From an uncultured delta proteobacterium (GTDB taxonomy: Bacteria; Desulfobacterota; WTBG01; JAGOGO01): 64,000 bases of DNA. Of this stretch, positions 2,490 to 24,205 are shown piece after piece. The stretch is taken from contig CAVSIB010000055.1 in NCBI GenBank assembly GCA_963727835.1, positions 439 through 64,438 of the forward strand, given 5' to 3'. Under the pieces are notes generated by a model. It had not been told where the DNA came from. It ran no database searches and worked only from the letters and a program-made list of their open reading frames with translations. Positions within the stretch are counted from its first letter, which is position 1. Every line of letters begins with the position of its first letter. The position numbers and the translations under genes were made by a program.

Positions 2490-2525
2490 AGAAAACCTCC
2501 TTAGTCTTTAACTCCAAAACCAACC

Positions 2526-3500: not shown

Positions 3501-3501
3501 A

Positions 3502-3924
3502 TCAACCTCCGACTTTATCAATGACCCGGTTTTCGCTTGTCAAAGTTCGATGAACCGGGCATCGTTTGGCGATTTCTAATAATATCTCTTTCTGTTCAAA
3601 ACTTATAGGCCCCTGGAGATAAATGGTGCGGGTAATTTGATCAAGCTTCCCTTCTTTAGTCATACATTCACTGCAATCCTGAGCGTAAATCTTTTCGTGC
3701 GTTAAACGTATCTGCACACCCTCCAAAGGAATTTCCTTACGCTTGGCATAGCTGATAATGGTCATCGCCGTGCATCCCCCCAAAGAAGCTAACAGGAGAT
3801 CATACGGATTAGGGCCTTTCCCATCACCGCCAAATTCCTGGGGCTCATCAATGATTAAGCGTTGTTCACCCATAATAGCTTCTTGCTGCAGATTTTTTAA
3901 ATATTTAACTAAAACTTCTCTCAT
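3502..3924 (-). CDS. OsmC/Ohr superfamily (YhfA-like) protein
   Basis: DEP...GG.G.GPNPYDLLLASLGGCTAMT and AKRCPVHRTL two-Cys motifs. Its start overlaps the pdhA stop (ATGA). Confidence 0.88.
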   Translation of the reverse strand: MREVLVKYLKNLQQEAIMGEQRLIIDEPQEFGGDGKGPNPYDLLLASLGGCTAMTIISYAKRKEIPLEGVQIRLTHEKIYAQDCSECMTKEGKLDQITRTIYLQGPISFEQKEILLEIAKRCPVHRTLTSENRVIDKVGG

Positions 3925-4916
3925 CGTTCTTCTCCTTCTTTTTCTGAATAAATGTCTTTCATAAGTTCAATGGCCTCAGGCCAGGGACTGTTGTCAGCAA
4001 ACCTGACTGCTTCTTCCACCTCTCTTTCCAGTTCCTCTTTTATCGATCGAAGACCATCAGCATCACTGATCCCCTCCGCAATTAATTTCCGGGCAAAGTT
4101 CGGAATCGGATCACGATCTTTCCAAATTTTTTCTTCCCGGGGTATCCGGTAATCAGCCGGATCCGACATGGAATGCCCCCGAAAACGGTAAGTCAAGGCT
4201 TCAACAAAATAAGGGCCCTTTCCTTCCCGCGCATACTTAGCCGCTTTTTTTATGGCCTCCCGCACTGCCATGACATCCATCCCATTCACCTTTTCGGTTG
4301 GTATCCCATGCGCCTCAGCTTTTTTAACAATATCGGTTGTGGCGGATGCCCAAGAAACCGCGGTACTGATTCCAAAAAAATTATTCTCACAAATAAAAAT
4401 GATCGGAAGTGACCATATCTTTGACATATTCAATGATTCATAAAAAGCGCCCGCATTAGTCGCCCCATCGCCAAAAAAACTAGCTACCACTTTGTCCTCT
4501 TTCCGGTATTTAATTGCATAGCCAACACCTAAGGTAATCGGCACCCCCCCCGCAACAATGGCATACCCCCCAAAAAAGTTTGTCGTTGGATCAAAAAGAT
4601 GCATTGACCCGCCTTTTCCTTTGCATGTTCCCGTGGCCCGACCGAAAAGTTCGGCCATAACCTCCTTTGGACTGGTACCCTTAATCAAACAATGTCCATG
4701 GTCACGATAAGAACTTATTACATAGTCATCAGGATGAAGAGCACTTATCGCTCCAACGGCAACAGCCTCTTCACCGATATAGAGATGACAAAACCCGGTA
4801 ATTTTTCCCCGGGTGTACATCTCGGCAGTCCGTTCTTCAAACTCACGAATAAGGACCATATCATGGTACATTTTGAGAAGTTCGCTTTCAGGCATTTGTG
4901 ATTTTAATTTGGGCAT
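3921..4916 (-). CDS. pdhA: Pyruvate dehydrogenase E1 alpha subunit
   Basis: TPP motif GDGATN...N and YRFRGHSMSDP. ATG at 4916 follows an AGGAGA RBS. Confidence 0.95.
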   Translation of the reverse strand: MPKLKSQMPESELLKMYHDMVLIREFEERTAEMYTRGKITGFCHLYIGEEAVAVGAISALHPDDYVISSYRDHGHCLIKGTSPKEVMAELFGRATGTCKGKGGSMHLFDPTTNFFGGYAIVAGGVPITLGVGYAIKYRKEDKVVASFFGDGATNAGAFYESLNMSKIWSLPIIFICENNFFGISTAVSWASATTDIVKKAEAHGIPTEKVNGMDVMAVREAIKKAAKYAREGKGPYFVEALTYRFRGHSMSDPADYRIPREEKIWKDRDPIPNFARKLIAEGISDADGLRSIKEELEREVEEAVRFADNSPWPEAIELMKDIYSEKEGEER

Positions 4917-9692: not shown

Positions 9693-11141
9693 TCAGCCTA
9701 TCAGCCACTTAATCGAATCAAGGGCTCGTTCCAGATAAAAGGTTGGAGCAACTCCCATCTGGATGGTTCCGGCTAAGGTAATGATCAGCACGATCGTGAT
9801 CGGGAGGGAATATTCGAGAGCCACCTCTTTAATCGGCTCTTTCATATACATAATCACGGTAACCCGGAAGTAGTAAAAAACCGAAATCAGGCTGTTCATC
9901 ACTCCGATGATGGTAAGCCATATATAGCCGGATTTAATCGCCGCACTAAAAATATAAAACTTCCCCATAAAGCCAGCTAACGGGGGAATCCCGGCTAAAG
10001 AAAAAAGGAAGATCGCCATTGCTGCGCCTAAAAACGGGTATCTAAATCCAAGTCCAGCATAATCTGCAATCTCAACATTAGCTTCTTCCTTCTGTCCATA
10101 GAAAACCACAATGCCGAAAGCGCCCAGATTCATAAACGCGTAGGCCCCTAAATAGTAGAGCACGGCTGACCAGCCAACGCTCCCACCGGCAATGATGCCC
10201 ACGAGAATATACCCGGCATGCGCGATACTGGAGTAGGCAAGCATCCTTTTGATATTCGTCTGAGATAACGCCACGACATTCCCCACGGTCATAGTGATAA
10301 CCGCCAGCACCCACAGCACATCTTTCCACTGAAAGTCAAGAAGGGGTAATGCTCCTCCAAAAATTCTCAAAAACGCGGCAAAAGCCGCGGCTTTGACTCC
10401 CACAGCCATAAAAGCGGTAATCGCAGTCGGCGCTCCTTCGTACACATCCGGGGTCCAAGAGTGAAACGGTACTAACGCTAATTTAAAACCCAGACCAACC
10501 AGAAGAAGTCCAACCCCTAAAAGCAAAAGCGGATTTGTTCCTAAATTTTTAAGGGCAATATACTGGGCAATTCCCTCAATCCGCGTTGTCCCGGTTGCCC
10601 CGTAAACCAGAGCGATCCCATAGAGCAAGAAAGCCGCAGCAAACGCTCCCAGCAGGAAATACTTAAATGCCGCCTCCGCACTTTGTTCCACCCACTTTCG
10701 ATAACCCACTAAAACATAGATGGCTATTGAAAGGGTCTCCAAACCGAGAAAAATTATGATCAGATCAAGCCCCTTAACCATAAGCAGCATCCCTATGGTA
10801 GCAAGGAGCACCAAAGTATGGTATCCCCCCACGTCCATACTTCCCTCCCGAAGGGCCTGCATGGACATCAGGGTAACGATAAGGCCCACGCCTACTATAA
10901 GAACCGTTAAAAATCGAGTAAAACTATCATTGATAATCATCCCCCCAAAAGCTTTTTTCACACCCCCCTCATCCACCAGCACAAACACTAACGCAAATAC
11001 CATCCCGAGCACTGCAAGGTATCCGAGGCTGTCTTTCTTTTTTCCTTTAATCACGAGATCCAAAAAAATCACCATTACCGCGGTGCCGAAGAGTATTAGT
11101 TCTGGTCCGATTGAAGTCCAGTTTACATCTGGTATCGTCAT
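9693..11141 (-). CDS. nuoN: NADH-quinone oxidoreductase subunit N
   Basis: EAAFKYFLLG, FKLALVPFHSWTPDVYEGAP and KRMLAYSSIAHAGY motifs. ATG at 11141 follows a GGAG RBS. Confidence 0.96.
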   Translation of the reverse strand: MTIPDVNWTSIGPELILFGTAVMVIFLDLVIKGKKKDSLGYLAVLGMVFALVFVLVDEGGVKKAFGGMIINDSFTRFLTVLIVGVGLIVTLMSMQALREGSMDVGGYHTLVLLATIGMLLMVKGLDLIIIFLGLETLSIAIYVLVGYRKWVEQSAEAAFKYFLLGAFAAAFLLYGIALVYGATGTTRIEGIAQYIALKNLGTNPLLLLGVGLLLVGLGFKLALVPFHSWTPDVYEGAPTAITAFMAVGVKAAAFAAFLRIFGGALPLLDFQWKDVLWVLAVITMTVGNVVALSQTNIKRMLAYSSIAHAGYILVGIIAGGSVGWSAVLYYLGAYAFMNLGAFGIVVFYGQKEEANVEIADYAGLGFRYPFLGAAMAIFLFSLAGIPPLAGFMGKFYIFSAAIKSGYIWLTIIGVMNSLISVFYYFRVTVIMYMKEPIKEVALEYSLPITIVLIITLAGTIQMGVAPTFYLERALDSIKWLIG

Positions 11142-11142
11142 T

Positions 11143-12726
11143 CTATGCTCCTTGTTCTCCCCGGCTTTCAATCACCTTAAAAGCCTTGAAAGACACTTTT
11201 CCCTCCTGAACGGGGTTTTTCACGTTCACCCTTTGTTCTACCCTTTTTATCATTCCGTTAACAGTTGCTTCCATGGGTTTAAGAAATGGTTTGGGATAAA
11301 CGCCAATCCAGATAATAAAAATTACCAAAGGTATTAAAACTATAAGTTCCCGTTTAGTTAAATCAGGGAGATTTTTATTTTTCGGATTCGTCACCTCGCC
11401 AAACATAACGCGCTGAAACATCCACAACATGTAAACCGCAGCGAGGATGACGCCGGTTGCGGCAAACACCACGAATATCACGTTCGTAAACTGAGAACGG
11501 AACGCTCCCAAAAGAATCAAAAATTCACCCACAAAACCATTGAGACCAGGAAGCCCGATGGAAGAAAGGGTAACAATCATGAAAAGAGTAGCATATACGG
11601 GCATCGCCTTTGATAACCCTCCGAATTCCGCGATCAACCGGGTATGTCTGCGCTCGTAGAGCATCCCCACGATGAGAAACAAGGCTCCGGTCGAAAGTCC
11701 ATGGTTGATCATCTGCAGGATTCCGCCCTGAATCCCCTGGAGGTTCAAGGTAAAAAGACCGAGCATCACAAACCCCAAATGGCTTACGGAAGAAAAGGCA
11801 ACTAACCGCTTTAGGTCCGTTTGAACCATGGCCACCAAAGCCCCATAAATAATTCCCACCACTGCCAGGAACGATATCACCGGCACAAAACTCACGAAAG
11901 CTTCAGGAAAAAGCGGCAAATTATAGCGGAGGAAACCATAGGTTCCCATCTTCAAAAGAACCGCCGCAAGGAGCACGCTGCCAACAGTTGGCGCCTCTGT
12001 ATGCGCATCCGGTAGCCAAGTATGAAAAGGAAACATCGGAACCTTGATGGCAAAGGCAAGTCCAAAAGCCAGAAAAAGCCAGGTCTGCACCGAGTGGGGA
12101 ATCGCCAACGCATACCATTTTAAAAGATCAAAGGTGTATTCCCCGGTAACGTTCGCGTGATAAAAGTAAATATAGAGAATTGCCACAAGCATGAGCAAGC
12201 TTCCCACCATGGTGAAAAGCACAAACTTTATGGCCGCATAAATCCTGCGCGCGGGATTACCCCACACCCCGATAATAAAGTACATCGGCACCAACATTAA
12301 TTCCCAGAAAACATAAAAAAGAAAAACATCCAGGGATACAAAAACCCCCACCATCCCCGTCTCCATAAGGAGAATACAAACGAGGAACTCTTTGACATGC
12401 TGCTTAATATCTTCCCAGCAGGCTAACACGGCGATACAGGATAAAAAGGTAGTCAGCAGTACCAGCCAGAGGCTGAGTCCATCGAGTCCCACCCGATAAG
12501 CAATCCCCAAGCGCGGTATCCAGGAGAGATATTCGGTAAACTGCATCCCACCGTTTTCCACCTGAAACATAAAAAATAAGGGCAGTGAAAGAACAAACTC
12601 GACCAACGTGATAAAAAGGGCGAACCCTTTTAAAAGCTTTTCTTTCGTGTGGTCAAGGAAAAAAAGCCCAACCACACCGATCAAGGGTAAAAATATTAAA
12701 TAGCTGAGGATCGGATACTCCATCAA
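11143..12726 (-). CDS. nuoM: NADH-quinone oxidoreductase subunit M
   Basis: FYVFWELMLVP, AIKVPMFPFHTWLPDAHTEAPT and LKMGTYG motifs. Confidence 0.97.
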   Translation of the reverse strand: MMEYPILSYLIFLPLIGVVGLFFLDHTKEKLLKGFALFITLVEFVLSLPLFFMFQVENGGMQFTEYLSWIPRLGIAYRVGLDGLSLWLVLLTTFLSCIAVLACWEDIKQHVKEFLVCILLMETGMVGVFVSLDVFLFYVFWELMLVPMYFIIGVWGNPARRIYAAIKFVLFTMVGSLLMLVAILYIYFYHANVTGEYTFDLLKWYALAIPHSVQTWLFLAFGLAFAIKVPMFPFHTWLPDAHTEAPTVGSVLLAAVLLKMGTYGFLRYNLPLFPEAFVSFVPVISFLAVVGIIYGALVAMVQTDLKRLVAFSSVSHLGFVMLGLFTLNLQGIQGGILQMINHGLSTGALFLIVGMLYERRHTRLIAEFGGLSKAMPVYATLFMIVTLSSIGLPGLNGFVGEFLILLGAFRSQFTNVIFVVFAATGVILAAVYMLWMFQRVMFGEVTNPKNKNLPDLTKRELIVLIPLVIFIIWIGVYPKPFLKPMEATVNGMIKRVEQRVNVKNPVQEGKVSFKAFKVIESRGEQGA

Positions 12727-12732
12727 TTCTCC

Positions 12733-14703
12733 TTAGCGGAAAAGGTAGTATGCGATAAGCAGTACTGTTCCCACCAACATCCAAATTGCATAGTTTTGGA
12801 CATAACCCGTTTGAAGCCGCTTAAGAATGGCGCTTAAACCAGTACACAACCTGCCGGCTCCATTAGCGGTTCCATCAATAACGTTTTCGTCAACTGAGTG
12901 CCACAGCCATTCAGAGACACGGCGAATAGGCTGCACAAAAATTGCATTATAAATTTCGTCCATATAATATTTATTGAAAATGATTCGATAAGGGGTTTTA
13001 AACGTACCCGCAATTTTTCCCGGGGCCTCCGGATTTTTCAGGTAAAGATAATAAGCGAGGCTAATACCCACAATCGCCACTCCAAAGGAAACTCCCATAA
13101 GCGCCCATTCAAGCGAAAGTTCCTCTCCATGCGCAAAAGCTTCGGCCGCCTGAGCAAGACCGACCAAGCTCAACCCGCCGGCCTGATGATGAACAGCAAC
13201 CGGAACCGCGCTTTTAAACACCGGCGCTAAAAACTCTCGAAACCATTCTCCGCCTCCCAAGGAGGGAGGAATACCGATCCAACCCCCAACCAGTGATAGC
13301 ACGGCTAATACTGCCAGAGGTAAAATCATCACCGGGGGAGATTCATGCACGTGATTTGCCACATGCTCATCGAGCCTCGGCTTGCCGTAAAAAGCCATAA
13401 ATACCGCGCGAAACATATACAGAGCTGTGAGCAACGCGGTGATTGCGCCCACCAGCCATAACCAGGAATTCTTCTGGAATGCTCCCCACAGGATTGCATC
13501 CTTGCTGAAAAAACCGGCCAGCGGAGCTATACCGGCAATCGCGAGGGTTCCGATCAAAAAGGTTGAATGGGTCCAGGGAAGCTGTTTTCTCAATCCTCCC
13601 ATCTTTCGGATATCAAGCTCTCCGGACAAAGCATGCATCACGCTCCCGGCGCCAAGAAAAAGAAGGGCTTTAAAAAACGCATGGGTCATAAGGTGAAAAA
13701 TCCCTGCCGCAAATGCCCCCGCACCGCAGGCCAGAAACATATAACCGAGCTGGCTTATCGTTGAATACGCGAGCACCCGTTTAATGTCAAACTGGGTAAG
13801 TCCCATAGTAGCAGCATAGAGCGCTGTTCCCACTCCCACTATCGCCACTACCCACAGAGATAGGGGAGCCAAAACATAGAGAGCATTGCATCGCGCTACC
13901 ATATAAACGCCGGCAGTAACCATGGTGGCAGCATGAATCAGAGCGCTGACAGGGGTGGGGCCTTCCATGGCGTCGGGGAGCCATACGTAAAGCGGAAACT
14001 GAGCGGATTTTCCACACGCTCCTATAAAAAGAAGAAGGGTAATCATGGTAGCCGTAATTCCGCCATAGGGAAGATAGTGATGAGCAACCGGAAATACTTT
14101 TAAAAAGTCGAGGCTTCCGAAAGTTACAAAAATGAGCATCATGCCCAATAAAAATCCATAGTCCCCAACCCGGTTAACAACAAAAGCCTTTTTACCCGCG
14201 TCCGCAGGAGCCTGACGCTGGTACCAGAATCCGATCAGAAGATAAGAGCAGAGACCCACTCCTTCCCAACCCACAAACATCAGGAGGAAACTGTTGGCAG
14301 AAACCAGCATAAGCATAAAAAAGACAAAGAGGTTGAGATAAACAAAGTAACGTCTAAACCCTTCATCCTCATGCATATACCCGATCGAATAAACGTGAAT
14401 AAGGAAAGATACCCCGCTTACGGTAAGGAGCATCACCATAGAAAGCGGATCAACCAGGAATCCGAGGTTGACCACGAAATCTCCGCTCGGAATCCACTGA
14501 CACAGGATCACTTCTTTGACGCGTTCGGCGGCGGGAAGTTGAATAAGCTCATAAAAAACCCCGCAGGATACCAGAAAGGAACCACACACCGTAAGCGAGC
14601 CGATGGTTCCGGTGAGCCATTTGGGAAACCGTATTCCCACCAGTCCGTTAATCAAGACTCCGCACAAAGGCAAAAATGGAACTAACCAGATGAGGTCCAG
14701 CAT
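12733..14703 (-). CDS. nuoL: NADH-quinone oxidoreductase subunit L
   Basis: GWEGVGLCSYLLIGFW, GKSAQFPLYVWLPDAMEGPTPVSALIHAATMV and HAFFKALLFLGAG motifs. Confidence 0.97.
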   Translation of the reverse strand: MLDLIWLVPFLPLCGVLINGLVGIRFPKWLTGTIGSLTVCGSFLVSCGVFYELIQLPAAERVKEVILCQWIPSGDFVVNLGFLVDPLSMVMLLTVSGVSFLIHVYSIGYMHEDEGFRRYFVYLNLFVFFMLMLVSANSFLLMFVGWEGVGLCSYLLIGFWYQRQAPADAGKKAFVVNRVGDYGFLLGMMLIFVTFGSLDFLKVFPVAHHYLPYGGITATMITLLLFIGACGKSAQFPLYVWLPDAMEGPTPVSALIHAATMVTAGVYMVARCNALYVLAPLSLWVVAIVGVGTALYAATMGLTQFDIKRVLAYSTISQLGYMFLACGAGAFAAGIFHLMTHAFFKALLFLGAGSVMHALSGELDIRKMGGLRKQLPWTHSTFLIGTLAIAGIAPLAGFFSKDAILWGAFQKNSWLWLVGAITALLTALYMFRAVFMAFYGKPRLDEHVANHVHESPPVMILPLAVLAVLSLVGGWIGIPPSLGGGEWFREFLAPVFKSAVPVAVHHQAGGLSLVGLAQAAEAFAHGEELSLEWALMGVSFGVAIVGISLAYYLYLKNPEAPGKIAGTFKTPYRIIFNKYYMDEIYNAIFVQPIRRVSEWLWHSVDENVIDGTANGAGRLCTGLSAILKRLQTGYVQNYAIWMLVGTVLLIAYYLFR

Positions 14704-14717
14704 AATACCTTACTTTC

Positions 14718-15020
14718 TTACCATTTAAGTAAATTTATCTCATCAACATTGATGGTTCCCTTAGTCCGGAAGATGCTGATAATGATCGCAAGACCCACTG
14801 CTGCTTCTGCTGCCGCCACCGTCATCACCAAAAGGACAATTACCTGGCCATCCAAAGACGATAAACTCCGGGCTATGGCCACAAAACTTAAGTTTACGGC
14901 ATTAAGCATAAGCTCAATGCACATAAATATCACGATCGCATTTCGCCTTATCACAACCCCAAGCACTCCGAGCGTAAACAGGATCACACTCAAACCCAAA
15001 TAGTGGGATAAAGGAATCAT
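14718..15020 (-). CDS. nuoK: NADH-quinone oxidoreductase subunit K
   Basis: [10 protein letters not shown] and [11 protein letters not shown] motifs; 100 aa. Confidence 0.97.
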
Positions 15021-15023
15021 GGA

Positions 15024-15545
15024 TTATTTCTCCTCTTTCCGTTTGGCTAAGATAACTGCTCCAACAATCGCGGCCAGAAGAAGGACTGAGGTAACTTCAA
15101 AGGGGAGCAGATAATCAGTAAAAAGCTTTTCCGCCAATGCCTGGGTATTTCCCCCGGCCAGGGCATTCAATGTCTCGATGCTCTTCTCTCCGGCCTTCCC
15201 TGGCAACAGGTCAACCATGACGGTCACGCCAATTCCCACCAGCAGCGCAATCCCCAAAAGAACTCCCACCACTCTCTGGGTCCGATGTTTGGAGAGTAGC
15301 TCCTCCGCCCGATCAACCCTGAGAAGCATAATCACAAACAGGAAGAGGACCATAATCGCTCCGGCATAGACAATAACTTGAATCGCCGCGACAAATTCGG
15401 CTTGTAAAAGCACATAAAGGGCGCCAAAACAGAAAAAAACCAGCACTAACCACAGGGCACTGTGAATCGCGTTGCGTCCCATCACCACCCTCACGGCGGC
15501 AATGATCGTAACCAAGGCAATAATGTAAAAAATAATTCCTTCCAT
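15024..15545 (-). CDS. nuoJ: NADH-quinone oxidoreductase subunit J
   Basis: AEFVAAIQVIVYAGAIMVLFLFVIML and YLLPFEVTSVLLL motifs. Confidence 0.96.
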   Translation of the reverse strand: MEGIIFYIIALVTIIAAVRVVMGRNAIHSALWLVLVFFCFGALYVLLQAEFVAAIQVIVYAGAIMVLFLFVIMLLRVDRAEELLSKHRTQRVVGVLLGIALLVGIGVTVMVDLLPGKAGEKSIETLNALAGGNTQALAEKLFTDYLLPFEVTSVLLLAAIVGAVILAKRKEEK

Positions 15546-15554
15546 TTTCTTAAC

Positions 15555-15980
15555 TCATTTTCCGACTTTTATCAGCCGCTCCTTGTCATACGTTAAATCT
15601 TCCCGCCGGTATTCTGCCAGCTCATACGACCGGCTCATAATGATTGCCGCCTTGGGGCAGGCTTCCACACAATAACCGCAAAAAATACATTTTCCCATAT
15701 CAATTTCAAAAGTGATCGGATACTTTTCGTGCTCATTTCCTTCCCCGGCTTCGAGGGTAATCACCTGGGCCGGACAAACCGTCGCACACAGCGAGCAGGC
15801 AACGCACTTCTCCTTCCCTTTTTCATCCAGCCGTAAAATATGGGAACCCCGGTAGCGTAAATACGGCTCCCGCATTTCCTCCGGGTATTTCATCGTGACC
15901 GGACGGGTAAAGAAAAATTTAAAGGGAACGCTCAACCCTTTTATAAGTGCCCAAATTCCTTTTATCGTTGCTCCGATCAT
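15555..15980 (-). CDS. nuoI: NADH-quinone oxidoreductase subunit I
   Basis: Two 4Fe-4S motifs, CVACSLCATVCP and CIFCGYCVEACP. Confidence 0.96.
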   Translation of the reverse strand: MIGATIKGIWALIKGLSVPFKFFFTRPVTMKYPEEMREPYLRYRGSHILRLDEKGKEKCVACSLCATVCPAQVITLEAGEGNEHEKYPITFEIDMGKCIFCGYCVEACPKAAIIMSRSYELAEYRREDLTYDKERLIKVGK

Positions 15981-15989
15981 GCTTTTTCT

Positions 15990-16985
15990 CTATCTAATCA
16001 TCACGACTGCGGTTACCGCAATGTTGATAATGCTCAACGGGAAAAGAACCTTCCAACCAAATTGCATCAACTGGTCATACCGGAAACGGGGAAAGGTTGC
16101 CCGGAGCCAGATAAAAATAAAACTGAAAATAAAAACTTTAATGCCAAACCAGATGGGGCCGCACCATGCGGGACAGGAAATAAAACCTGGTCCCAGCCAG
16201 CCCCCAAAGAAAAGCGTTACGATCAAAGCGCTCATAAGAATAACGCTTGCGTATTCGGCCATAAAGAAAAGCGCAAATTTCATACTTGAATATTCAACGT
16301 GAAATCCCGCCACCAGCTCACCTTCCGCTTCCGGAAGATCAAAAGGAGTGCGGTTGCATTCAGCCACCGCACAGATAAAGAAAATTAAAAAACCGATAAA
16401 CTGAGGCAAGAAAAACCAGCCCTGGGTTCCCTGTGCCTGCACAATTTTAACTAAACTTAAGCTTTCCGACTGCATCAAAACCCCGATCGTCGCAAGACCC
16501 AACGGAAGCTCATAACTTACCATCTGCGCTGCTGAGCGCAAACCTCCCATTAAGGCATATTTGTTGTTCGACGACCACCCTGCCAGCACAATCCCATAAA
16601 CCCCCAAAGAAGACAAGGCAAAGATATAGAGAAGTCCGATATTGATATCAGCGATCCGTAATGGTATATCATGGCTAAAAATCTTAACTGAATCTCCAAA
16701 CGGAATGACGGCCACCGTTAAAAGCGCGGTTGAGATAATAATAAACGGGGCTAAGTGGTATACCACCTTGTCCGCAGCAGTAACAATCACATCTTCTTTG
16801 AAAAAGAGCTTTATTCCGTCAGCGATCGGCTGTAATAACCCGTTTATCCCTACCCGATGGGGACCGAGCCGGCTTTGCATATGTCCCAGCACCTTCCGTT
16901 CCAGCCAAGTCATGTACGCCACCGTTAAAAGCAGGGCGGCAAATACAATCACAATTTTTAGTAACATAAATAATAATTCAACCAT
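15990..16985 (-). CDS. nuoH: NADH-quinone oxidoreductase subunit H
   Basis: ERKVLGHMQSRLGP, QPIADGIKLFFKE and RTPFDLPEAEGELVAGFHVEYS motifs. Confidence 0.97.
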   Translation of the reverse strand: MVELLFMLLKIVIVFAALLLTVAYMTWLERKVLGHMQSRLGPHRVGINGLLQPIADGIKLFFKEDVIVTAADKVVYHLAPFIIISTALLTVAVIPFGDSVKIFSHDIPLRIADINIGLLYIFALSSLGVYGIVLAGWSSNNKYALMGGLRSAAQMVSYELPLGLATIGVLMQSESLSLVKIVQAQGTQGWFFLPQFIGFLIFFICAVAECNRTPFDLPEAEGELVAGFHVEYSSMKFALFFMAEYASVILMSALIVTLFFGGWLGPGFISCPAWCGPIWFGIKVFIFSFIFIWLRATFPRFRYDQLMQFGWKVLFPLSIINIAVTAVVMIR

Positions 16986-19566
16986 TTCCTAACCCCTTGG
17001 TGATCTCTACCGGGCAATAGTTCTGATTGGCGATCAACTGGTTCACTTTAGCGTCACGAAAATTATTAGGGACAAAAACTACTCCCCGAGGAACAGCGGA
17101 ACTCACTTTAACCGAAGCACTCACCGCTTTGCCTGACGAGGAAATCGTTACTTGATCTCCTTCGTTTACCCCCAGCGTTTCGACATCCTCATGATTTATT
17201 TCCACCCACGCTTTGCCTCCAAGAACAGTAAGTCCTGAATTGGTCGAGAGCGTACCGGAATGAAAGAACGCGGTCCCGGTTATTAAGGTAAAATTTCCTG
17301 GTTTGGGCTTTTCCACTTTGTTGAGAGAAAAAGAAACGAAGGAAGGAGTACCATCTGTGCTTGACCACTGTATCCCCTTCCTTCCCAAAAGTTCATAGGC
17401 AACCCCTTTATACTGCGGCACTAAAGAAGCAATCTCTCCCATGATCGCTCTCGGATGAGAATAATCCATAGGATAGCCAATTCCGTGAGAGAGTTTTTGG
17501 ATGATTACCCAATCCGGCAAGGCGCTCCGATACGGCAAAATCCCCGTAGAAAATTTTTGCACCCGCCGTTCACCGTTAGTAAACGTCCCTTCTTTTTCCG
17601 CAAAGGTTACTGCGGGAAAGACATAGTCAGCCTTGGACGCTACCTCAGAATAAAAAACATCTTGCACTGCCAGCCATTCCAGTTTACCCAACGCTTCTTC
17701 CCACTTGTCCGGAAAGGGAAAATCAATAAGTGGATCGCATCCCATGACATAAAGCGCTTTTATTTTTCCTTCAAGAATACCATGAAGAATTTCTTCTGCA
17801 TTTTTGCCCGGTTGTTTTGGTATCGGCCTGCCCCAAGCCTTTTCAAAGGATGCAGCTTTTTCCAGTCTCTGATAGCCAGGGAGGAGATCCGGCATCACGC
17901 CCATGTCGAGCATTCCCTGGACATTATTTTTGGCGATAATCGGAATGAGGCTCCGGTCTTTCTGGCTGATTGCGGCCGTCATAAGACCTAACGTGCCTAA
18001 GGAGGCGACCACCTCTTTGGCCTGCTGATGAGTAAAAACATCATACCCAAAAACGATACATCCGGTATCTTTCTTCCCTAAAATCGTGGCCACCTGATGA
18101 ATCTGTTCAATCGGAACACCAGTAAGATCAGCAAGTTCCTGAAGGGTTTTTGCTTCTAAAGATTTTTTAAGAATCGAAAACTGAGGAATCGTCTCGATCC
18201 GTTCTTTGTTTTCCAAACCTCGTTCCAAAACCGCTTTCATGATCCCCGCAACCAAAAGCAGTTCTGTTCCCGGATAATACCGCAGGTGCAGGTTGGCGAA
18301 TTTATCGAGCTTGGTTGTCCGAGGGTTCCCAACCACGAGCACGGCCCCGTGCAGACGCGCCATTCTCATGATCTTCAAGGCGGCGGGAGGACATTCCGCG
18401 CGCACATCAGCGCCGAGAACAAAAATGACTGGAGCTTTTTCCAGAGCATCAAATCCCTGAGGACTTGCAGGCAATCCTAGGGTTGCTCGCAACCCCCGCT
18501 CCAGGTTTCGGTAATTAAAATGAGCCGGGCTATCAATGTTGTTCGTGCCGATAGCGGCCCGGAAAAACTTCTGAAAAAGATAGTTATCCTCATTGGAAGC
18601 CCGAGGAGAGGCTAAGCCGGCAATGCTCTCCGGTCCTGAGGACTTAAGGATTTTCTTTAACTGCTCGGCAGCGCTCCCGAGAGCGTCTTCCCAGGTAACC
18701 GGTACCTGATCCTTGCGGCGCTTGATTAAAGGGGAATGGAGCCGGTTGTTGTTATTAATAAAACCAAAGCCAAAATTGCCCCGGCCGCAAAGGTTACCTT
18801 GGTTATGTGTGTCTTCGTAAGAAGAGGTGATCCGTAACACCTTGTTTTTGCGCACATTCAGCTCAATCGCGCACCCGCCGCCACAATACGGGCAGACCGA
18901 AGGAGTTTTCTCTAATTCCCAAACCCGGGCTTTGTATTTAAAGGGGCGGTTGAGCAACGCGCCGACAGGGCAGTGAGCAATACATTGGCCACAAAACTCG
19001 CAGTTGAGCGGATATCCTCCCCGAGGGAGAATCTCCGCGTCATACCCGTGGTTCACCCATTCAATCGCCATTTCTCCCTGGATCTCATTACAAACACTCA
19101 CACAACGACCGCACCGGACACACCGGTTATTATTCCTTTCCACCAAGGGTGACAGGTAGTCAATGGTAAGAGAATTTGCCTCTACCTTATAGACTTCCTG
19201 ATCGAGCCCAAACTCAAAAGCTAAATCCTGAAGTCGGCATTCCCCGCCTTTGTCGCAGATCGGACAATCGAGCGGATGATTAACCAACATAAACTGGATG
19301 GCTTCCTTCCGCAGTGCAAGAAGTTTTTCTGACTGGGTGGTTACCTTCATATAGGATACTACCGGAGTATTGCAGGAGGTAACCGGTTTCTCGTATCCCT
19401 CGATTTCCACGAGACAAAGCCGGCAGGAACCGATGGGCAATAGTTTGGGGTGATAACAAAGAGTAGGGATTTCTATCCCCAGGGCTCTGGCGGCCGCCAA
19501 GATTGTGGTCTCCTTGGGGACCGAAATTTCTTTTCCGTCAATGGTTATGGTTACGTTGTCGTTCAT
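16978..19566 (-). CDS. sfrA: NuoG/SfrA-like Fe-S protein with a molybdopterin-oxidoreductase fold (no catalytic Cys)
   Basis: IPTLC...GSCRLC (2Fe-2S), HPLDCPICDKGGECRLQ, CVRCGRCVSVC, CEFCGQCIAHCP and CPYCGGGC...NLCGRG motifs. Recalled similarity to Geobacter SfrA over the whole length. ATG at 19566 overlaps the upstream stop. Confidence 0.85.
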   Translation of the reverse strand: MNDNVTITIDGKEISVPKETTILAAARALGIEIPTLCYHPKLLPIGSCRLCLVEIEGYEKPVTSCNTPVVSYMKVTTQSEKLLALRKEAIQFMLVNHPLDCPICDKGGECRLQDLAFEFGLDQEVYKVEANSLTIDYLSPLVERNNNRCVRCGRCVSVCNEIQGEMAIEWVNHGYDAEILPRGGYPLNCEFCGQCIAHCPVGALLNRPFKYKARVWELEKTPSVCPYCGGGCAIELNVRKNKVLRITSSYEDTHNQGNLCGRGNFGFGFINNNNRLHSPLIKRRKDQVPVTWEDALGSAAEQLKKILKSSGPESIAGLASPRASNEDNYLFQKFFRAAIGTNNIDSPAHFNYRNLERGLRATLGLPASPQGFDALEKAPVIFVLGADVRAECPPAALKIMRMARLHGAVLVVGNPRTTKLDKFANLHLRYYPGTELLLVAGIMKAVLERGLENKERIETIPQFSILKKSLEAKTLQELADLTGVPIEQIHQVATILGKKDTGCIVFGYDVFTHQQAKEVVASLGTLGLMTAAISQKDRSLIPIIAKNNVQGMLDMGVMPDLLPGYQRLEKAASFEKAWGRPIPKQPGKNAEEILHGILEGKIKALYVMGCDPLIDFPFPDKWEEALGKLEWLAVQDVFYSEVASKADYVFPAVTFAEKEGTFTNGERRVQKFSTGILPYRSALPDWVIIQKLSHGIGYPMDYSHPRAIMGEIASLVPQYKGVAYELLGRKGIQWSSTDGTPSFVSFSLNKVEKPKPGNFTLITGTAFFHSGTLSTNSGLTVLGGKAWVEINHEDVETLGVNEGDQVTISSSGKAVSASVKVSSAVPRGVVFVPNNFRDAKVNQLIANQNYCPVEITKGLGNG

Positions 19567-21524
19567 TCTGTTTTCGTCGCGTAAAGAGCTACCCGATAGC
19601 ATCGAAGACACCGCTCTGCCTCCCGAATCGCCGTATCCGGGGGAAATCCTAATTCTACTTCATCAAAACTGTGGATTCGGGTCTGCGGTGAGAGGTGCCC
19701 CATCTTTGCTTTTGGAACTCCACCAACAATCCCCAGTTTCTCATTTTTATCATACACGCCAATTTCACTTACCATCTTTTCTTGCCGTCGGTAATCGGGG
19801 AGGATCATCTTCTGACCGGTGAGGTACTGATCAATGGCGATGGCAGCATCATAACCAGCGGCCAATGCTCCCACCAACACATCCGGACCGGTCACACAAT
19901 CACCCCCGGAAAAAATCCCCTCCTGTGAAGTCGCCATGCTGTCCGCATCAACCACAATCGTGCTCCACTTGGTTTTTGTAACACCACTCCCCTCAGGAAG
20001 TAATGAGAGATCAACATCCTGACCAATAGCCGGAATCAGCACATCGGTCTCGATAATAAATTCCGAGCCTTTAACTTCTACGGGTCTTCTCCTTCCGCTT
20101 TCATCCGGTTCGCCCAACTCCATCCGGATACATTCGACCGCGGTAACCCGGTGGTTCTCCGTAATGATCCGCTTCGGGAGAGTGAGAAAATGGAAGTTCA
20201 CTCCTTCTATTTCAGCGTCTTCAATTTCCACGGGGTCCGCCGGCATCTCAGCACGGGAGCGACGGTAAACGATGTTAGAATCAGTAAACCCTACCCGAAA
20301 GGCGGAGCGAACACAGTCAATTGCCACATTCCCTCCTCCTACCACGAGGAGCTTTTTTCCTTTATAAATTTCTTTGCCCAGGTTGATGTCCCGGAGAAAT
20401 TCAACGCCTTTGACAAAGCCTTGATAGCCGGCGTCTTCGCCGTCAACTCCCATTTTTTTACTCAAGTGGGCGCCGACGCCGATGAAGATAGCGCGAAAAC
20501 CCTGAGCTTTCATCTCGTCCAGGGTAATGTCTTTGCCCACACGGGTGTTGTACTGTATTTCCACTCCCCGTTTCTTTATCACCTCAATTTCGTACTGGAG
20601 AATGTTCCGGGGAAGCCGGTAGTCAGGGATACCCACGGCAGCCATGCCTCCGCCTTCCGGCAAGGCCTCGAAAATTTTCACCGGATACCCTTTTAAGCTT
20701 AAATAAAACGCACAGGCAAGACCAGCCGGTCCAGCGCCGACCACCCCAATCTTGTGCTCTTTCTTGGTTTCACTTTTCAGTTGAGGCTCGATCTGGTGCT
20801 CAATCTCATAGTCACCGACAAACCGCTTCAAGGTCTTAATTTGAATCGGCTCATCCAGATTCGCCCTCCGGCAATGGAACTCACAGGGCCGGATACACAC
20901 CCGACCGCACACTCCGGGAAGAGCATTCCGCTCCCGAATAAGGCTCAGGGAGTCTTCAAACCTGAGGTTTTTGATCAGTTCAACGTAGGACGGAACATCA
21001 AGATGCACCGGGCACGCATCCATGCAGGGTGCCGTAACCTGGAAGTGATAATTTCCTTTGGGTAATTCTTTCTTCTCGGCAACGTGTTTTTCAAACGCGG
21101 CTTTAAAGTGCGTGAGCGCGTGGAGTATGGGGACCGGGCCGGATTTACCAATTTCACATTTCGCACTCGTAAGAATTTCCTCCCCCAGTCTTTCCAGAGT
21201 TTCTAAATCTTCTTTTTTCCCTTTTCCCGAACAAATGCGGCTTAAGGTTTCCCGCATTATCCGCGTCCCAACCCGGCAGGGAATACATCGTCCGCACGAA
21301 GCGCCCTGAATGGCCTCGAGATACGCTCTCGCCATATCCACAATATTAACAACCATCTCATCCTTCAGCACAATCCCGTCCCACCCCATGAAGCCGACAA
21401 TTTTTTCATTTCCGGCATAGACATCCGGCAATTTTTTCGGCTCAGCTTCCTGGAATGCCTCCGGAGCCTTTCCCCGGTTATCAACTACTTTGTTCGCCCA
21501 GCTGCTGAATAATACTTTTCCCAT
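19563..21524 (-). CDS. sfrB: SfrB-like FAD/NADPH oxidoreductase (NuoF 4Fe-4S region fused to a GltD/NfnB-like domain)
   Basis: N-terminal VLFSSW...VDNR...GFMGWDGI as recalled for SfrB; CGRCIPCRVG; CMDACP...CGRVCIRPCE.HCRR; GAGPAG; GGGNVAIDC...YRRSRAEMPA; C-terminal EAERCLRCYR. ATG at 21524. Confidence 0.87.
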   Translation of the reverse strand: MGKVLFSSWANKVVDNRGKAPEAFQEAEPKKLPDVYAGNEKIVGFMGWDGIVLKDEMVVNIVDMARAYLEAIQGASCGRCIPCRVGTRIMRETLSRICSGKGKKEDLETLERLGEEILTSAKCEIGKSGPVPILHALTHFKAAFEKHVAEKKELPKGNYHFQVTAPCMDACPVHLDVPSYVELIKNLRFEDSLSLIRERNALPGVCGRVCIRPCEFHCRRANLDEPIQIKTLKRFVGDYEIEHQIEPQLKSETKKEHKIGVVGAGPAGLACAFYLSLKGYPVKIFEALPEGGGMAAVGIPDYRLPRNILQYEIEVIKKRGVEIQYNTRVGKDITLDEMKAQGFRAIFIGVGAHLSKKMGVDGEDAGYQGFVKGVEFLRDINLGKEIYKGKKLLVVGGGNVAIDCVRSAFRVGFTDSNIVYRRSRAEMPADPVEIEDAEIEGVNFHFLTLPKRIITENHRVTAVECIRMELGEPDESGRRRPVEVKGSEFIIETDVLIPAIGQDVDLSLLPEGSGVTKTKWSTIVVDADSMATSQEGIFSGGDCVTGPDVLVGALAAGYDAAIAIDQYLTGQKMILPDYRRQEKMVSEIGVYDKNEKLGIVGGVPKAKMGHLSPQTRIHSFDEVELGFPPDTAIREAERCLRCYRVALYATKTE

Positions 21525-21537
21525 AATCTTATTTACT

Positions 21538-22734
21538 TTACTTATCAATTTCGCCGAGAACAATATCCATACTGCCGATAATAGCCACAATATCAGCTAA
21601 CAATCGGCCCTTTGCTAAAGTCTCAAGCGCCATTAAATTCATAAACGAAGGGGTCTTGATTTTAACCCGATACGGTTTAGAACTCCCGTCGCTGACGATA
21701 TAAAATCCTAATTCACCCCGCGGGGTCTCAATTGCCTGGTATACCTCCCCTTCCGGCACTTTGAATCCTTCACTGATGATCTTGAAATGATGAATTAAGG
21801 CACCGATATCAGTCATCACCTTTTCTTTTATTGGGGGAATGACTTTTGCATCATCCGCGTAAATAGGCCCGGGTTTAAGTTTTTTCAATCCCTGTTTGAT
21901 TAAATCGATACTTTGTTTCATTTCTTCAATGCGAACCCGGTATCGGTCATACACATCCCCGTTTTTGCCCAGGATAAAGTCAAATTGATAATTTTCATAC
22001 CCACTGTAAGGATTCGTCTTCCTTAAATCCCATTTAAAGCCGCAAGACCGTAACGTCGGGCCGGTTGTTCCCAGGTTGATCGCTTCTTCCGCCGTTATTT
22101 TTCCTACTCCCTTGGTCCGGTTGATCCAAATCGGGTTATTGGTGAGCAAATCCTCATACTCTGTAATGTGCTTGGGAAATGTTTCTGTAAACTCCGCGAT
22201 CTTATCCCTGGCCGCGCTCATGACGTCTCCGTTAACTCCGCCGACCCGGATATAGCTCGGATTCATCCGCGCTCCTGCCACCATCTCAAAGATATCCAAG
22301 ATCTCTTCCCGCTCTCGGAAACAATACATGATCGGACTCATCGCCCCGATGTCAAGGACGTGGGTTCCCATCCAGACCAAGTGGCTCTGGATCCTGGTCA
22401 ATTCCACCATGATAACCCGAATAACTTGTGCACGCTCTGGCATCTGGATTCCCAAAAGCCTTTCCACTGCCAGTGCGTACCCGAAATTGTTCACCATGGG
22501 ACTGAGGTAATCTAATCGGTCGGTTAAGGGAATAACTTGATGGTAGGTTTTATTTTCGGCAAGTTTCTCAATTCCCCGATGAAGGTGTCCCAAATGGGGG
22601 ATTACCCTCAAAATCACTTCGCCGTCAAGCTCCAGGTCAACCCTCAACACCCCGTGAGTACTTGGGTGCTGGGGACCCATGTGCAGAATCATGGTTTCCG
22701 TGTGCAGGTGTGGGTTTAGTCGCGCTTCCGCCAC
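21538..22734 (-). CDS. nuoD: NADH-quinone oxidoreductase subunit D
   Basis: MGPQHPSTHGVLR, HRGIEK, DRLDY, ETPRGELG and DIVLGEIDK motifs. Confidence 0.97.
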   Translation of the reverse strand: MAEARLNPHLHTETMILHMGPQHPSTHGVLRVDLELDGEVILRVIPHLGHLHRGIEKLAENKTYHQVIPLTDRLDYLSPMVNNFGYALAVERLLGIQMPERAQVIRVIMVELTRIQSHLVWMGTHVLDIGAMSPIMYCFREREEILDIFEMVAGARMNPSYIRVGGVNGDVMSAARDKIAEFTETFPKHITEYEDLLTNNPIWINRTKGVGKITAEEAINLGTTGPTLRSCGFKWDLRKTNPYSGYENYQFDFILGKNGDVYDRYRVRIEEMKQSIDLIKQGLKKLKPGPIYADDAKVIPPIKEKVMTDIGALIHHFKIISEGFKVPEGEVYQAIETPRGELGFYIVSDGSSKPYRVKIKTPSFMNLMALETLAKGRLLADIVAIIGSMDIVLGEIDK

Positions 22735-23234
22735 TGCACTCCTCCTTCGTGTCCGGCGATTATCTCCGCCTTGCCCAGTAAAGGATAATCCTTCCGGAGC
22801 GGAAACCCATCAAATTCCTCAATCGTCAGAAGCCGCAGCAAATCAGGATGCCCATCGAATTCAATCCCAAACATTTCATGGCATTCCCGTTCCGGCCAGT
22901 CGGCAGCTTTCCAGATACCAGTCATCGTAGGAACACTTTCATTCTCACCCACTTCGGTTTTCACCCGAAGCCACTGGTGCGTTCGGGTGGAATAAAGCTG
23001 ATAGATTAACTCAAACCGTTTATCCTTTTTCCCTTGATAATCCACCCCACCGAAGTCGGAAAGAAGATCAAAGCTGAGTTCCTTATCTTCCTTGAGAAGG
23101 CAACAAACTCTTTTCACATCTTCCTTATCCACGAGGATCCCGGGATCCCCGAAAGCCGTTATAATTTTTTTAACCACTCCGGGGAAAGCTTGTTCGAGTT
23201 TTTTTATCGCAGGGTGTTCCTGGGTCATAGTCAT
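22716..23234 (-). CDS. nuoC: NADH-quinone oxidoreductase subunit C
   Basis: ADWPERECHEMFGIEFDGHPDL.R...FPLRKDYP motif. Confidence 0.96.
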   Translation of the reverse strand: MTMTQEHPAIKKLEQAFPGVVKKIITAFGDPGILVDKEDVKRVCCLLKEDKELSFDLLSDFGGVDYQGKKDKRFELIYQLYSTRTHQWLRVKTEVGENESVPTMTGIWKAADWPERECHEMFGIEFDGHPDLLRLLTIEEFDGFPLRKDYPLLGKAEIIAGHEGGVQWRKRD

Positions 23235-23241
23235 AATTCGA

Positions 23242-23721
23242 TTACTTCCGATCCGAAAACTTTTCGTTTTTAATCTTATTCTGAATCTGGATGATCGCGT
23301 GAATCAACCCTTCCGGTTTAGGAGGACAGCCGGGCACATAAACATCTACCGGGATAATCCGGTCAACGCCTTGCACTACAGCATAAGAATTAAATATTCC
23401 TCCGGTAGCCGCGCAAGCGCCCATAGCGATCACCCATTTAGGCTCAGCCATCTGTTCGTAAATCCTCCGCACGACCGAAGCCATCTTGTTGGTAACGGTT
23501 CCGGCGACAATCATCAAATCCGCTTGCCGGGGTGAGGCCCGAAACACCTCCGCGCCAAACCGGGCTAAGTCATACCGGGGCATACAAGAAGTCATCATCT
23601 CAATTGCGCAGCAGGCCAAGCCAAACGTGGCCGGCCATAAGGAAGACCTCCGTCCCCAGTTTACCAGCGACTCTAATGTCGTGGTGATGATATTTTCTCC
23701 CAAGTGGCTTTCTAATCCCAT
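23242..23721 (-). CDS. nuoB: NADH-quinone oxidoreductase subunit B
   Basis: [24 protein letters not shown] and PGCPP motifs. Confidence 0.97.
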
Positions 23722-24068
23722 TCAAAAGCCCCTTTCTTCCAAACATAGATAAACCCAACCAGCAGAACAAGAATAAAAAACCCCATCTCTACCAGTCCAA
23801 ATACGCCGAGCCTCCGATAAATCACTGCCCAGGGGTAAAGATATAATGCCTCAATATCAAAGAGAATAAAAATCATGGTGGTAATATAGAACTTAATCGA
23901 AAACCGTTGCCTGGCAGTACCAACCGGATCAATACCGCATTCGTACGGCATGAGCTTTGTGTCGCTCTTCTTTTTTTGTCCTAAAAGGGCGGAAAGAAGG
24001 AGGGTTACTCCAGCAAAACCAAAAACAATTACCATAAGAATTAATATTTGTAAGTATTCTTTAAGCAT
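23712..24068 (-). CDS. nuoA: NADH-quinone oxidoreductase subunit A
   Basis: PYECG and [15 protein letters not shown] motifs. 118 aa from the ATG at 24068. Confidence 0.96.
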
Positions 24069-24175
24069 GGGGTTTGCTACTGAAGTAAAAAAAGAGGAAG
24101 ATCGTGCTGTGTCCCTTAAAAAAATTTTTAAAAATATTACTGAATGAATGGTCATTCATCGGATAAAGTTTCCTT

Positions 24176-24205
24176 AAAATACTAAATTTAAATTTCCGCT
24201 GTCAA
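24176..24205 (-). promoter_or_regulatory. Putative sigma70 promoter of the nuo operon
   Basis: Minus-strand TTGACA-N18-TATTTT about 110 bp upstream of nuoA. Confidence 0.4.

Follow-up and report, generated by a model that had tools for sequence, protein, structure and literature searches.

A complex I operon with a predicted NADPH-type input module related to formate dehydrogenase in an uncultured Desulfobacterota bacterium

Introduction

Which donor feeds electrons into a complex I whose operon encodes neither NuoE nor NuoF? This question is raised by a 64,000-nucleotide stretch of DNA from an uncultured delta proteobacterium of the phylum Desulfobacterota (GenBank assembly GCA_963727835.1, contig CAVSIB010000055.1, positions 439 to 64,438), hereafter called the window, to which all unlabeled coordinates refer. 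Its minus strand carries a thirteen-gene nuo operon (24068..9693) in which a 653-residue flavoprotein and an 862-residue NuoG-like protein stand in the place of NuoEFG. An earlier reading of this DNA, the original prediction, proposed that the two proteins form an SfrAB-type NADPH oxidoreductase that serves as the electron input head of complex I. Our analysis leads to a related but revised answer. With a probability of roughly 0.6, the operon encodes a reversible, proton-coupled NADPH:menaquinone oxidoreductase, that is, a 13-subunit complex I with a two-protein N module derived from formate dehydrogenase (FDH). It is predicted from sequence that this module docks on NuoBCDI and prefers NADPH to NADH; the coupling to protons and the direction of the reaction in the cell are predictions of the same kind.

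Should the predicted docking hold, the compounds that complex I directly consumes or produces (NADH, F420H2 and ferredoxin) would be extended by NADPH. Such an enzyme would account for the electron supply of many "headless" complex I operons in anaerobes, and would open a way for syntrophs and hydrocarbon degraders to run electron transport in reverse. The design has been anticipated in print and is not categorically new; the Desulfobacterota variant and the series of live and dead FDH heads described below are new to the literature that we found.

Gene Order and Head Module

The operon was read from a listing of open reading frames (ORFs) combined with Pfam and NCBIfam profiles. The order is nuoA-B-C-D, the flavoprotein gene, the gene for the NuoG-like protein, and nuoH-I-J-K-L-M-N, in agreement with the original prediction. 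All eleven core subunits (NuoA, B, C, D, H, I, J, K, L, M and N) were matched, with NuoB, C, D and I scoring above the curated NCBIfam cut-offs. In contrast, a Pfam scan detected neither the NuoE domain (PF01257) nor the NuoF domain for flavin mononucleotide (FMN) and NADH (PF01512) in any protein of the operon. The two head genes occupy precisely the place of nuoEFG, with translational coupling to nuoH. Reading the junctions from the sequence, we found 13 nucleotides between the nuoD TAA and the ATG of the flavoprotein gene, an ATGA stop/start overlap between the two head genes (GAATGAAC), and an overlap of 8 nucleotides where the end of the NuoG-like gene runs into the start of nuoH (ATGGTTGA), all as first described.

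This layout is far beyond chance. It recurs in three independently sampled metagenome homologues (56–61% identity, all in the arrangement nuoABCD-X-Y-nuoHIJKLM) and in other genomes of the phylum, of which we examined 401 in an even sampling (the window's own and 400 others), inspecting the flanks of the 108 best hits. Heads linked to nuo genes occur in 62 of these 400 genomes, from 17 families and 38 genera, and in 59 of the 62 nuoD lies directly upstream of the flavoprotein gene. The synteny that the original prediction had proposed to look for is thus a recurrent one, and linkage of the head to nuo genes extends across 17 families in three arrangements.

The flavoprotein (19563..21524, minus strand as for all following features), which takes the nuoE/nuoF position, is an Fe-S protein of FdhB/SfrB type composed of PF10589, PF14691 and PF07992 domains. 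Residues 63–147 (21084..21338) match the [4Fe-4S] domain that harbors cluster N3 in the C-terminal part of NuoF over its full length (PF10589, positions 1–85 of 85, E 4.6e-24). The CGRCIPC...C motif of this domain (21267–21296; CGRCIPCRVG at residue 77) lies inside the match, which bears out the earlier description of a NuoF-type motif joined to a GltD-like module for flavin adenine dinucleotide (FAD). A Fer4_20 domain predicted by Pfam to bind two [4Fe-4S] clusters follows at residues 164–244 (20793..21035). Residues 258–557 (19854..20753; PF07992, E 4e-28) contain the FAD and NADPH Rossmann folds with the motifs GAGPAG at residue 263 and GGGNVA at residue 396. Four residues past the end of the second Rossmann strand is the putative 2'-phosphate triad Y420-R421-R422 (20259..20267), and the segment IVYRRSRAEMPA that contains it matches, column for column, IVYRRTEREMPA of Thermotoga maritima NfnB (4ylf_B, Y310-R311-R312). 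These three NfnB residues bind the phosphate of NADP(H) (bioRxiv 10.1101/717884). The segment also aligns with StnC (8oh5_C), 9bov_A and 9n5u_A, so that the Y-R-R signature noted at the outset is shared with solved NADPH-binding relatives, and the triad is invariant in 148 of 148 family members, including the Moorella-type FdhB homologue.

Judged by alignment score, the large subunits of Stn/NfnABC-type transhydrogenases (8oh5_C, 9n5u_A and 9bov_A, 353–404 bits, compared to 328 bits for NfnB) are the closest solved structures for the NADPH-FAD module. The C-terminal ERCLRC motif (about residues 636–642) is the equivalent of an N-terminal segment of NfnB, with residues 605–642 aligning to NfnB residues 5–42; the two proteins are therefore circular permutations of each other. 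The flavoprotein is 44–49% identical over its full length to SfrB homologues from Geobacteraceae. With the GltD model TIGR01317 it scores 205.3, under the cut-off of 447.7, and its neighbors are nuo genes rather than gltB. The corresponding protein cluster is labeled "formate dehydrogenase beta subunit" by JGI, and the architecture is that of K15022 with an NADP(H) site.

The NuoG-like protein (16978..19566, in the nuoG position) appears to be an Fe-S scaffold of NuoG/FdhA type. According to Pfam, the N-terminal Fe-S domains of NuoG precede a molybdopterin oxidoreductase domain. Motifs predict a [2Fe-2S] cluster N1b (residues 37–65), an N5-type H-x3-C-x2-C-x5-C site (97–110), two CxxCxxCxxxC [4Fe-4S] sites (149–159 and 189–199) and an N7-type site (225–260). 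The best match in the PDB is FdsA, the alpha subunit of the NAD-dependent FDH from Rhodobacter capsulatus (446 bits over the full length), whereas true NuoG structures score 303 bits or less. The score with the FDH-alpha model TIGR01591 is 476.4 (cut-off 666.25), and alpha homologues from Geobacteraceae are 37–41% identical. Alignment with FdsA also revealed that the FDH active site has decayed. The pair Cys386-His387 of FdsA, which ligates molybdenum (ARVCHSP), is replaced by Asn351-Tyr352 (AHFNYRN; 18511..18516), and the catalytic Arg587 (PLRGQNNVQG) by Ile544 (PIIAKNNVQG; 17935..17937). Since both the Sec/Cys-His pair (Sec, selenocysteine) and the catalytic arginine are lost, the formate site is gone and formate is excluded as a substrate.

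Proposed Electron Path

The motifs for a continuous wire are all present: FAD, two [4Fe-4S] clusters and N3 in the flavoprotein, the clusters of the alpha-type subunit, N6a/b in NuoI, N2 in NuoB, and the quinone-site His and Tyr in NuoD. The 653-residue subunit would bind NADPH at the GltD/NfnB-type FAD site, and electrons would then travel singly through its two [4Fe-4S] clusters and the NuoF-type N3 domain into the 862-residue subunit ([2Fe-2S] plus four [4Fe-4S] clusters; N1b/N4/N5). Because the molybdopterin active site is dead, this alpha-type subunit would act as wire and scaffold only. Electrons would continue through NuoI (N6a/b) and NuoB (N2) to menaquinone in the NuoD/H pocket, a path to which proton translocation by NuoH, A, J, K, L, M and N would be coupled. 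In the forward direction, the enzyme would be an NADPH:menaquinone proton pump that feeds sulfate respiration. In reverse, the proton motive force could drive reduction of NADP+ by menaquinol, which would be useful in syntrophic growth. Menaquinone should be available because homologues of MqnA and MqnD (futalosine pathway) were found.

A precedent for the first half of this path is StnC, in which NADPH reduces a non-bifurcating FAD and electrons follow a linear path via two [4Fe-4S] clusters into a NuoG-like chain and on to an N3-type cluster, while an FdhF-like domain, catalytically dead, contributes scaffold only (PMC10482914). The two window proteins contain the same parts cut differently, without the FMN module, and are followed by NuoH and NuoI.

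We also considered whether a detached NuoEF(G) head might be encoded elsewhere. The window belongs to a metagenome-assembled genome (MAG) of 2.15 Mb that is 84% complete. Its nearest reference, the benzene-degrading ORM2a, has a closed genome and contains the identical operon at 91% identity. A canonical nuoEF was found in neither genome, so that the nuoEFG head named beforehand as refuting evidence did not turn up, and tblastn found no second nuoA-D or nuoH-N set in the MAG. Three NuoF-like genes of the MAG (589–619 residues), each with a NuoE-like neighbor, are of HydB type, all score under the NuoF cut-off (TIGR01959) and lie in clusters for soluble enzymes. Two of them belong to near-identical copies of one cluster, on contigs C40 and C59, with a large subunit of NfnABC/Stn type (660 bits to 9bov_A), and the third follows genes for a 2-oxoacid:ferredoxin oxidoreductase. 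The candidate detached head was rejected on this basis, because the three loci correspond to a transhydrogenase in two copies and to a neighbor of the 2-oxoacid:ferredoxin oxidoreductase. In ORM2a, eight NuoF paralogues (600–1057 residues) are of HydB type and under the cut-off, one full-length orthologue of the flavoprotein is present, and NuoD occurs as one complex I copy, in this operon, plus one Ech-type copy. We conclude that the operon encodes the sole respiratory complex I of the organism. The proposed reading is also in line with the detection of both head proteins by proteomics in ORM2a, described below.

The two transhydrogenase clusters (C40:14112-20241 and C59:92070-97451) lie at contig ends and comprise a NuoE-like protein, a HydB-type NuoF-like protein and a 2Fe2S-GltD-NuoG-like fusion. 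The large-subunit gene carries a different frameshift in each copy, probably as a result of strain variation or assembly error.

Alternative Readings

The alternative that survives best holds that the pair is a soluble SfrAB-like oxidoreductase that transfers electrons from NADPH to ferredoxin or another acceptor, and that diffusible ferredoxin links it to a "headless" ferredoxin:menaquinone complex made of the eleven Nuo subunits. We consider this unlikely. Nuo complexes of 11 subunits, without NuoEFG, are described as widespread in anaerobes and thought to use other donors (PMC11238625; PMC5736913). The pair is also not confined to the slot between nuoD and nuoH: in MAGs from Nitrospinales (L016, L019 and L023) it lies immediately upstream of nuoABCDH, and in three of the 62 nuo-linked genomes it follows nuoN. 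In the latter loci (L114, L117 and L127), a pair with an FdhB-like and a Sec-FdhA-like protein stands directly after nuoM-nuoN. On the other hand, passing electrons from NADPH to ferredoxin is an uphill step that needs coupling. In canonical complex I, NuoF is bridged to NuoI and NuoCD by NuoG, of which the alpha subunit is a homologue, and the part of NuoF that the flavoprotein retains is only that which contacts NuoG. Insertion exactly in the EFG slot with an overlap onto the nuoH start also speaks for an integral head. Finally, the label "nuo-linked" or "free" is bound to clades, with six changes on a flavoprotein tree of 148 rows compared to about 50 expected by chance, which suggests a stable structural commitment.

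Several observations weigh against an integral NADPH-dependent head. Gene order and translational coupling would also fit a soluble enzyme that is expressed along with the Nuo subunits, and many homologous pairs stand apart from nuo genes (35 of 79 loci). Six of the 59 nuoD-linked genomes have nuoD-flavoprotein-nuoH with no gene for the NuoG-like protein in between, which means that the alpha subunit is not always encoded in place; these loci (L074, L077, L078, L098, L107 and L111, in genomes G091, G012, G328, G086, G054 and G157 from two families) read nuoD-flavoprotein-nuoH-nuoI. In the window itself, no strong ribosome-binding site could be read before the flavoprotein ATG, and the NuoG-like protein scores 453.4 with the NuoG model TIGR01973, just under the cut-off of 470.05. 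The Y-R-R triad is a signature of nucleotide preference only. Claims of absence rest mainly on the closed ORM2a genome, the MAG being 84% complete.

Could the head bifurcate electrons? According to this second alternative, an NfnB-like FAD would split the electrons of NADPH between menaquinone, reached via complex I, and low-potential ferredoxin; in reverse, menaquinol and the proton motive force would drive reduction of both NADP+ and ferredoxin. Such a hypothesis has been published for Suden_1824 of Sulfurimonas (bioRxiv 10.1101/717884). The flavoprotein is homologous to the bifurcating NfnB and keeps the Arg of the GIPDYRLPR motif, and the extra cluster domain could offer a second exit. However, StnC is closer than NfnB by score and has the same Arg, yet it is experimentally non-bifurcating and linear (PMC10482914). 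Moreover, the operon provides no NfnA-like or HydBC-like partner, and no ferredoxin-docking domain is evident. We therefore regard a bifurcating or confurcating head as improbable.

We assign a slightly lower rank, and little credence, to a head that uses NADH or both nucleotides, in which case the complex would function as a common NADH:quinone oxidoreductase whose dehydrogenase module happens to be unusual. The Y-R-R triad is identical to that of the NADPH-binding NfnB and StnC. The protein family is annotated as NADP(H)-dependent, and has been characterized as such in Moorella and Geobacter. The genome also encodes the NfnABC/Stn-type transhydrogenase, which would be able to supply or consume NADPH. 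What keeps this reading alive is that signatures of nucleotide preference are imperfect, and that the ORM2a paper drew the complex as an NADH dehydrogenase (PMC13101534).

The remaining alternative, a formate:quinone oxidoreductase with a working FDH as its NuoG-like subunit, has public annotations and 23 related nuo-linked heads with an intact Sec/Cys-His pair in its favor, but it is scarcely tenable in view of the Asn-Tyr and Ile substitutions, a decay shared by ORM2a and the entire clade of the window. Public annotations name the pair formate dehydrogenase alpha/beta, or FAD-dependent and molybdopterin-dependent oxidoreductase. The supplement of the ORM2a paper, in the part that covers the Wood–Ljungdahl module, lists WAC07037.1 (K15022) with 32 spectra and WAC07038.1 (K05299) with 59 spectra (PMC13101534). 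An exact-sequence look-up established that these two accessions are the nuo-inserted pair of ORM2a. Both head proteins are therefore made in the ORM2a culture and have been misfiled as FDH. The same paper describes the nuo operon as "missing nuoG" (PMC13101534). Both this description and the Wood–Ljungdahl filing look like annotation artifacts of the head swap. The pair is labeled FDH by annotation pipelines and was counted toward the Wood–Ljungdahl pathway in ORM2a; in this respect, the metabolism reconstructed for such organisms is probably incorrect.

Distribution and Evolution

Heads linked to nuo genes occur in about 15% of the genomes sampled from the phylum (17 families). Nitrospinota and Campylobacterota supplied further cases; a Campylobacteraceae MAG (L043) has the pair between nuoD and nuoH. 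Pairs from Geobacteraceae and Desulfuromonadales are free-standing and have no nuo neighbors. On the flavoprotein tree, the window protein groups with nuo-linked Desulfobacterota (support 97/93) and apart from the SfrB clade of Geobacteraceae, and a larger tree, a FastTree phylogeny whose deep branching order is not supported, agrees. This result amends the original prediction of an SfrAB-type head: a pair resembling SfrB and SfrA does occupy the nuoEFG slot, but the phylogenetic comparison with SfrAB places the window flavoprotein outside the Geobacteraceae SfrB clade.

Many relatives of the window's alpha subunit have retained an FDH site. At the position of the molybdenum ligand, 21 nuo-linked alpha genes read CARL-TGA-His-Ser, which encodes selenocysteine, and two more read Cys-His, so that 23 of the 62 nuo-linked heads have a live Sec/Cys FDH site. 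In the seven-member clade of the window all FDH sites are dead. In the surrounding region of the tree, FdhB partners of live selenocysteine FDHs are interleaved with decayed forms, and the FDH site must therefore have been lost several times. In the window's clade it was probably lost independently of the loss in SfrA of Geobacteraceae. The head module is therefore best described as FdhAB-derived, with "SfrAB-like" denoting a decayed state and not an ancestry. The window head is thus probably SfrAB-like by parallel decay of an NADP-FDH-type module rather than an SfrAB orthologue.

The cultured Deferrisoma camini carries a live form. In its closed 4.24-Mb genome (L119 = WP_025323393.1; G022 C1:2880585-2886137), genes for an FdhB-like and an FdhA-like protein follow nuoC-nuoD, and the FDH active site encoded by the alpha gene includes an in-frame TGA (NVDHCARLUHSATVAG). 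The operon looks like one for a complex I with a live selenocysteine FDH/NADP(H) head. This cultured carrier makes the idea directly testable, and live and dead FDH heads on one scaffold offer a natural series for studying how the input module of complex I is remodeled.

A broader interpretation, which we put forward as tentative and rather less than an even bet, is that these operons represent a large and so far unrecognized complex I family whose input module came from an NADP-dependent selenocysteine FDH, with all stages extant (free FdhAB pairs, nuo-linked live Sec-FDH heads and repeatedly decayed heads), replaying the origin of NuoG. In the same interpretation, the decayed form would be the sole respiratory entry point of the ORM2 lineage, a reversible, proton-coupled NADPH:menaquinone oxidoreductase that would provide the reverse flow of electrons from menaquinol to NADPH on which syntrophic benzene oxidation depends.

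Some individual loci required separate inspection. An apparent fusion of NuoD to the flavoprotein (about 1,070 residues) in L128 and L131 was rejected since the upstream 415–422 residues do not match NuoD; they stem from an open stretch that crosses nuoD out of frame, in a genome of high GC content. Selenocysteine read-through of the split alpha gene in L014 was likewise dismissed, because several stops follow and indicate a frameshift. Initial calls of live FDH sites in L056 and L058 were withdrawn, as the motif belongs to separate neighboring FDH genes and the inserted alpha subunits are dead. In the immediate clade of the window, L064 (G036 C21:56502-58448) alone has no nuoD in the 1.3 kb upstream; it may represent a secondarily freed pair or a rearranged operon. 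Beside the nuo-linked operon of L056 and L057, and divergent from nuoA, positions 1237-4353 (minus strand) encode a 1038-residue protein in which a full NuoF (thioredoxin-like 2Fe-2S domain, FMN/NADH domain, SLBB and N3) is fused to a GltD-type module, together with a NuoE-like and an FDH-like gene. It is possible that this fusion resembles the ancestral state of the N3::GltD flavoprotein. A similar ORF of 1057 residues occurs in ORM2a at 2.737 Mb.

Relation to Known Systems

Like canonical 14-subunit complex I, the window operon encodes the eleven subunits of the Q and P modules in canonical order, with the head placed after nuoD and before nuoH. Also shared are the quinone-site His/Tyr, the ligands of N2 and the motifs for N6a/b, as well as the N1b, N4, N5 and N7-type motifs of the alpha subunit and the N3 domain of NuoF. 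Unlike the canonical enzyme, the predicted complex lacks NuoE (N1a) and the FMN/NADH domain of NuoF; hydride would be accepted by an FAD, bound in a fold of GltD type that bears an NADPH signature; and its head is predicted to contain three additional [4Fe-4S] clusters, of which the flavoprotein holds two and the alpha subunit the third. By score, the alpha subunit is also nearer to FDH alpha than to NuoG.

The original prediction allowed that this gene order might already have been noted in genome papers, and indeed it has. Suden_1824, an NfnB homologue from whose Y-R-R residues the same argument is drawn, is said to "substitute for NuoF" in a layout that is conserved in Sulfurimonas and Sulfurovum; Weerakoon and Olson (2008) are credited with first noting this layout (bioRxiv 10.1101/717884). 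For NUO-2 of Nitrospina, Lücker et al. (2013) described a NuoF2 without the FMN site that has N3, extra [4Fe-4S] clusters and a nucleotide domain, and a NuoG2 with one extra cluster; Kuenenia has a single-operon version annotated as formate:quinone oxidoreductase (PMC3578206). These systems, known from genome predictions only, share with the window a GltD/NfnB-like flavoprotein with Y-R-R and N3 in place of NuoF, and a NuoG with an extra cluster. They differ in belonging to other phyla and, on the flavoprotein tree, in falling into clades of their own or on long branches. Campylobacterota have two copies of NuoG, and in Nitrospinales the pair is upstream of nuoA, both unlike the window. The Sulfurimonas and Nitrospina papers also favor ferredoxin reduction or bifurcation in autotrophs, in contrast to the NADPH:menaquinone reaction that we favor here. 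In the account of Degli Esposti (2015), the only mention of a GltD-like protein concerns mbx-like operons, where it replaces NuoI. In the literature we found no mention of the Desulfobacterota forms, of a live/dead series or of a cultured carrier of the Desulfobacterota type. Consistent with the original prediction, our literature searches yielded no biochemically characterized complex I with this head, and no purified or measured proton-pumping complex I that runs on NADPH.

Three soluble systems are related to the head. SfrAB has the same two-subunit architecture, the Y-R-R triad and an alpha subunit without the Cys/Sec-His pair of FDH, whereas it is soluble and its genes are not beside nuo genes as the pair embedded between nuoD and nuoH is. 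It is reportedly the NADPH oxidoreductase of Geobacter sulfurreducens, as described by Kaufmann and Lovley in 2001 and by Coppi et al. in 2007. The two subunits are named "NADPH oxidoreductase alpha/beta" in a further study (PMC7894505). The NADP-dependent FdhAB (Moorella type; K05299/K15022) comprises the same alpha and beta families, and nuo-linked relatives keep its CARL-U-HS motif; unlike FdhAB, the window pair lacks the Sec/Cys-His pair and the Arg in its alpha subunit and is embedded in a complex I operon. StnABC/NfnABC (PDB 8OH5, 9BOV) resembles the window head in its NADPH-FAD module, its linear path from FAD through clusters and its dead FdhF-like domain. In these transhydrogenases, however, a single chain combines the GltD part with the NuoG-like part and feeds a bifurcating NuoEF-like FMN module, whereas the window head has no FMN module and its chain is predicted to end in NuoI, NuoB and quinone. 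Neither Pfam nor the ORF listing revealed a partner with a second nucleotide site (NfnA or a NuoEF-like StnAB) in the window operon.

Remaining Features of the Operon

Upstream of nuoA we noted a candidate sigma-70-like promoter (TTGACA-18-TATTTT, 24176..24205, 10 of 12 matches). Promoter-like sites are no commoner in this region than in shuffled sequences, which makes the candidate weak evidence; site counts from both the promoter and the terminator scans do not exceed those of shuffles, and the operon ends are thereby defined weakly. The candidate does fit a start of nuoA (23712..24068; PF00507, E 1.2e-38) at 24068, an internal ATG that is probably the true start and gives a protein of 118 residues beginning with MLKEY. 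The longest ORF has 29 additional codons (24069-24155), which encode a non-homologous, low-complexity N-terminus.

The gene nuoB (23242..23721; NF005012, 261.7 bits, above cut-off) encodes the ligands of cluster N2 (CC...C...C-P, with VPGCPP readable), and is followed by nuoC (22716..23234; TIGR01961, 133.6 bits, above cut-off). The product of nuoD (21538..22734; TIGR01962, 577.8 bits, above cut-off) aligns with mouse NDUFS2 with a score of 464 bits and keeps the His (GPQHPSTHGVLR) and Tyr (DRLDY) of the quinone pocket; NiFe Cys motifs were not found in its sequence. Downstream of the head genes are nuoH (15990..16985; PF00146, E 3.3e-131) and nuoI (15555..15980; TIGR01971, 144.5 bits, above cut-off), the latter with two CxxCxxCxxxCP motifs for N6a and N6b. 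They are followed by nuoJ (15024..15545; PF00499), nuoK (14718..15020; PF00420), nuoL (12733..14703; PF00662 and PF00361, with a weak PF01010 match) and nuoM (11143..12726; PF00361). The last gene, nuoN (9693..11171; PF00361), may start at an ATG at 11141.

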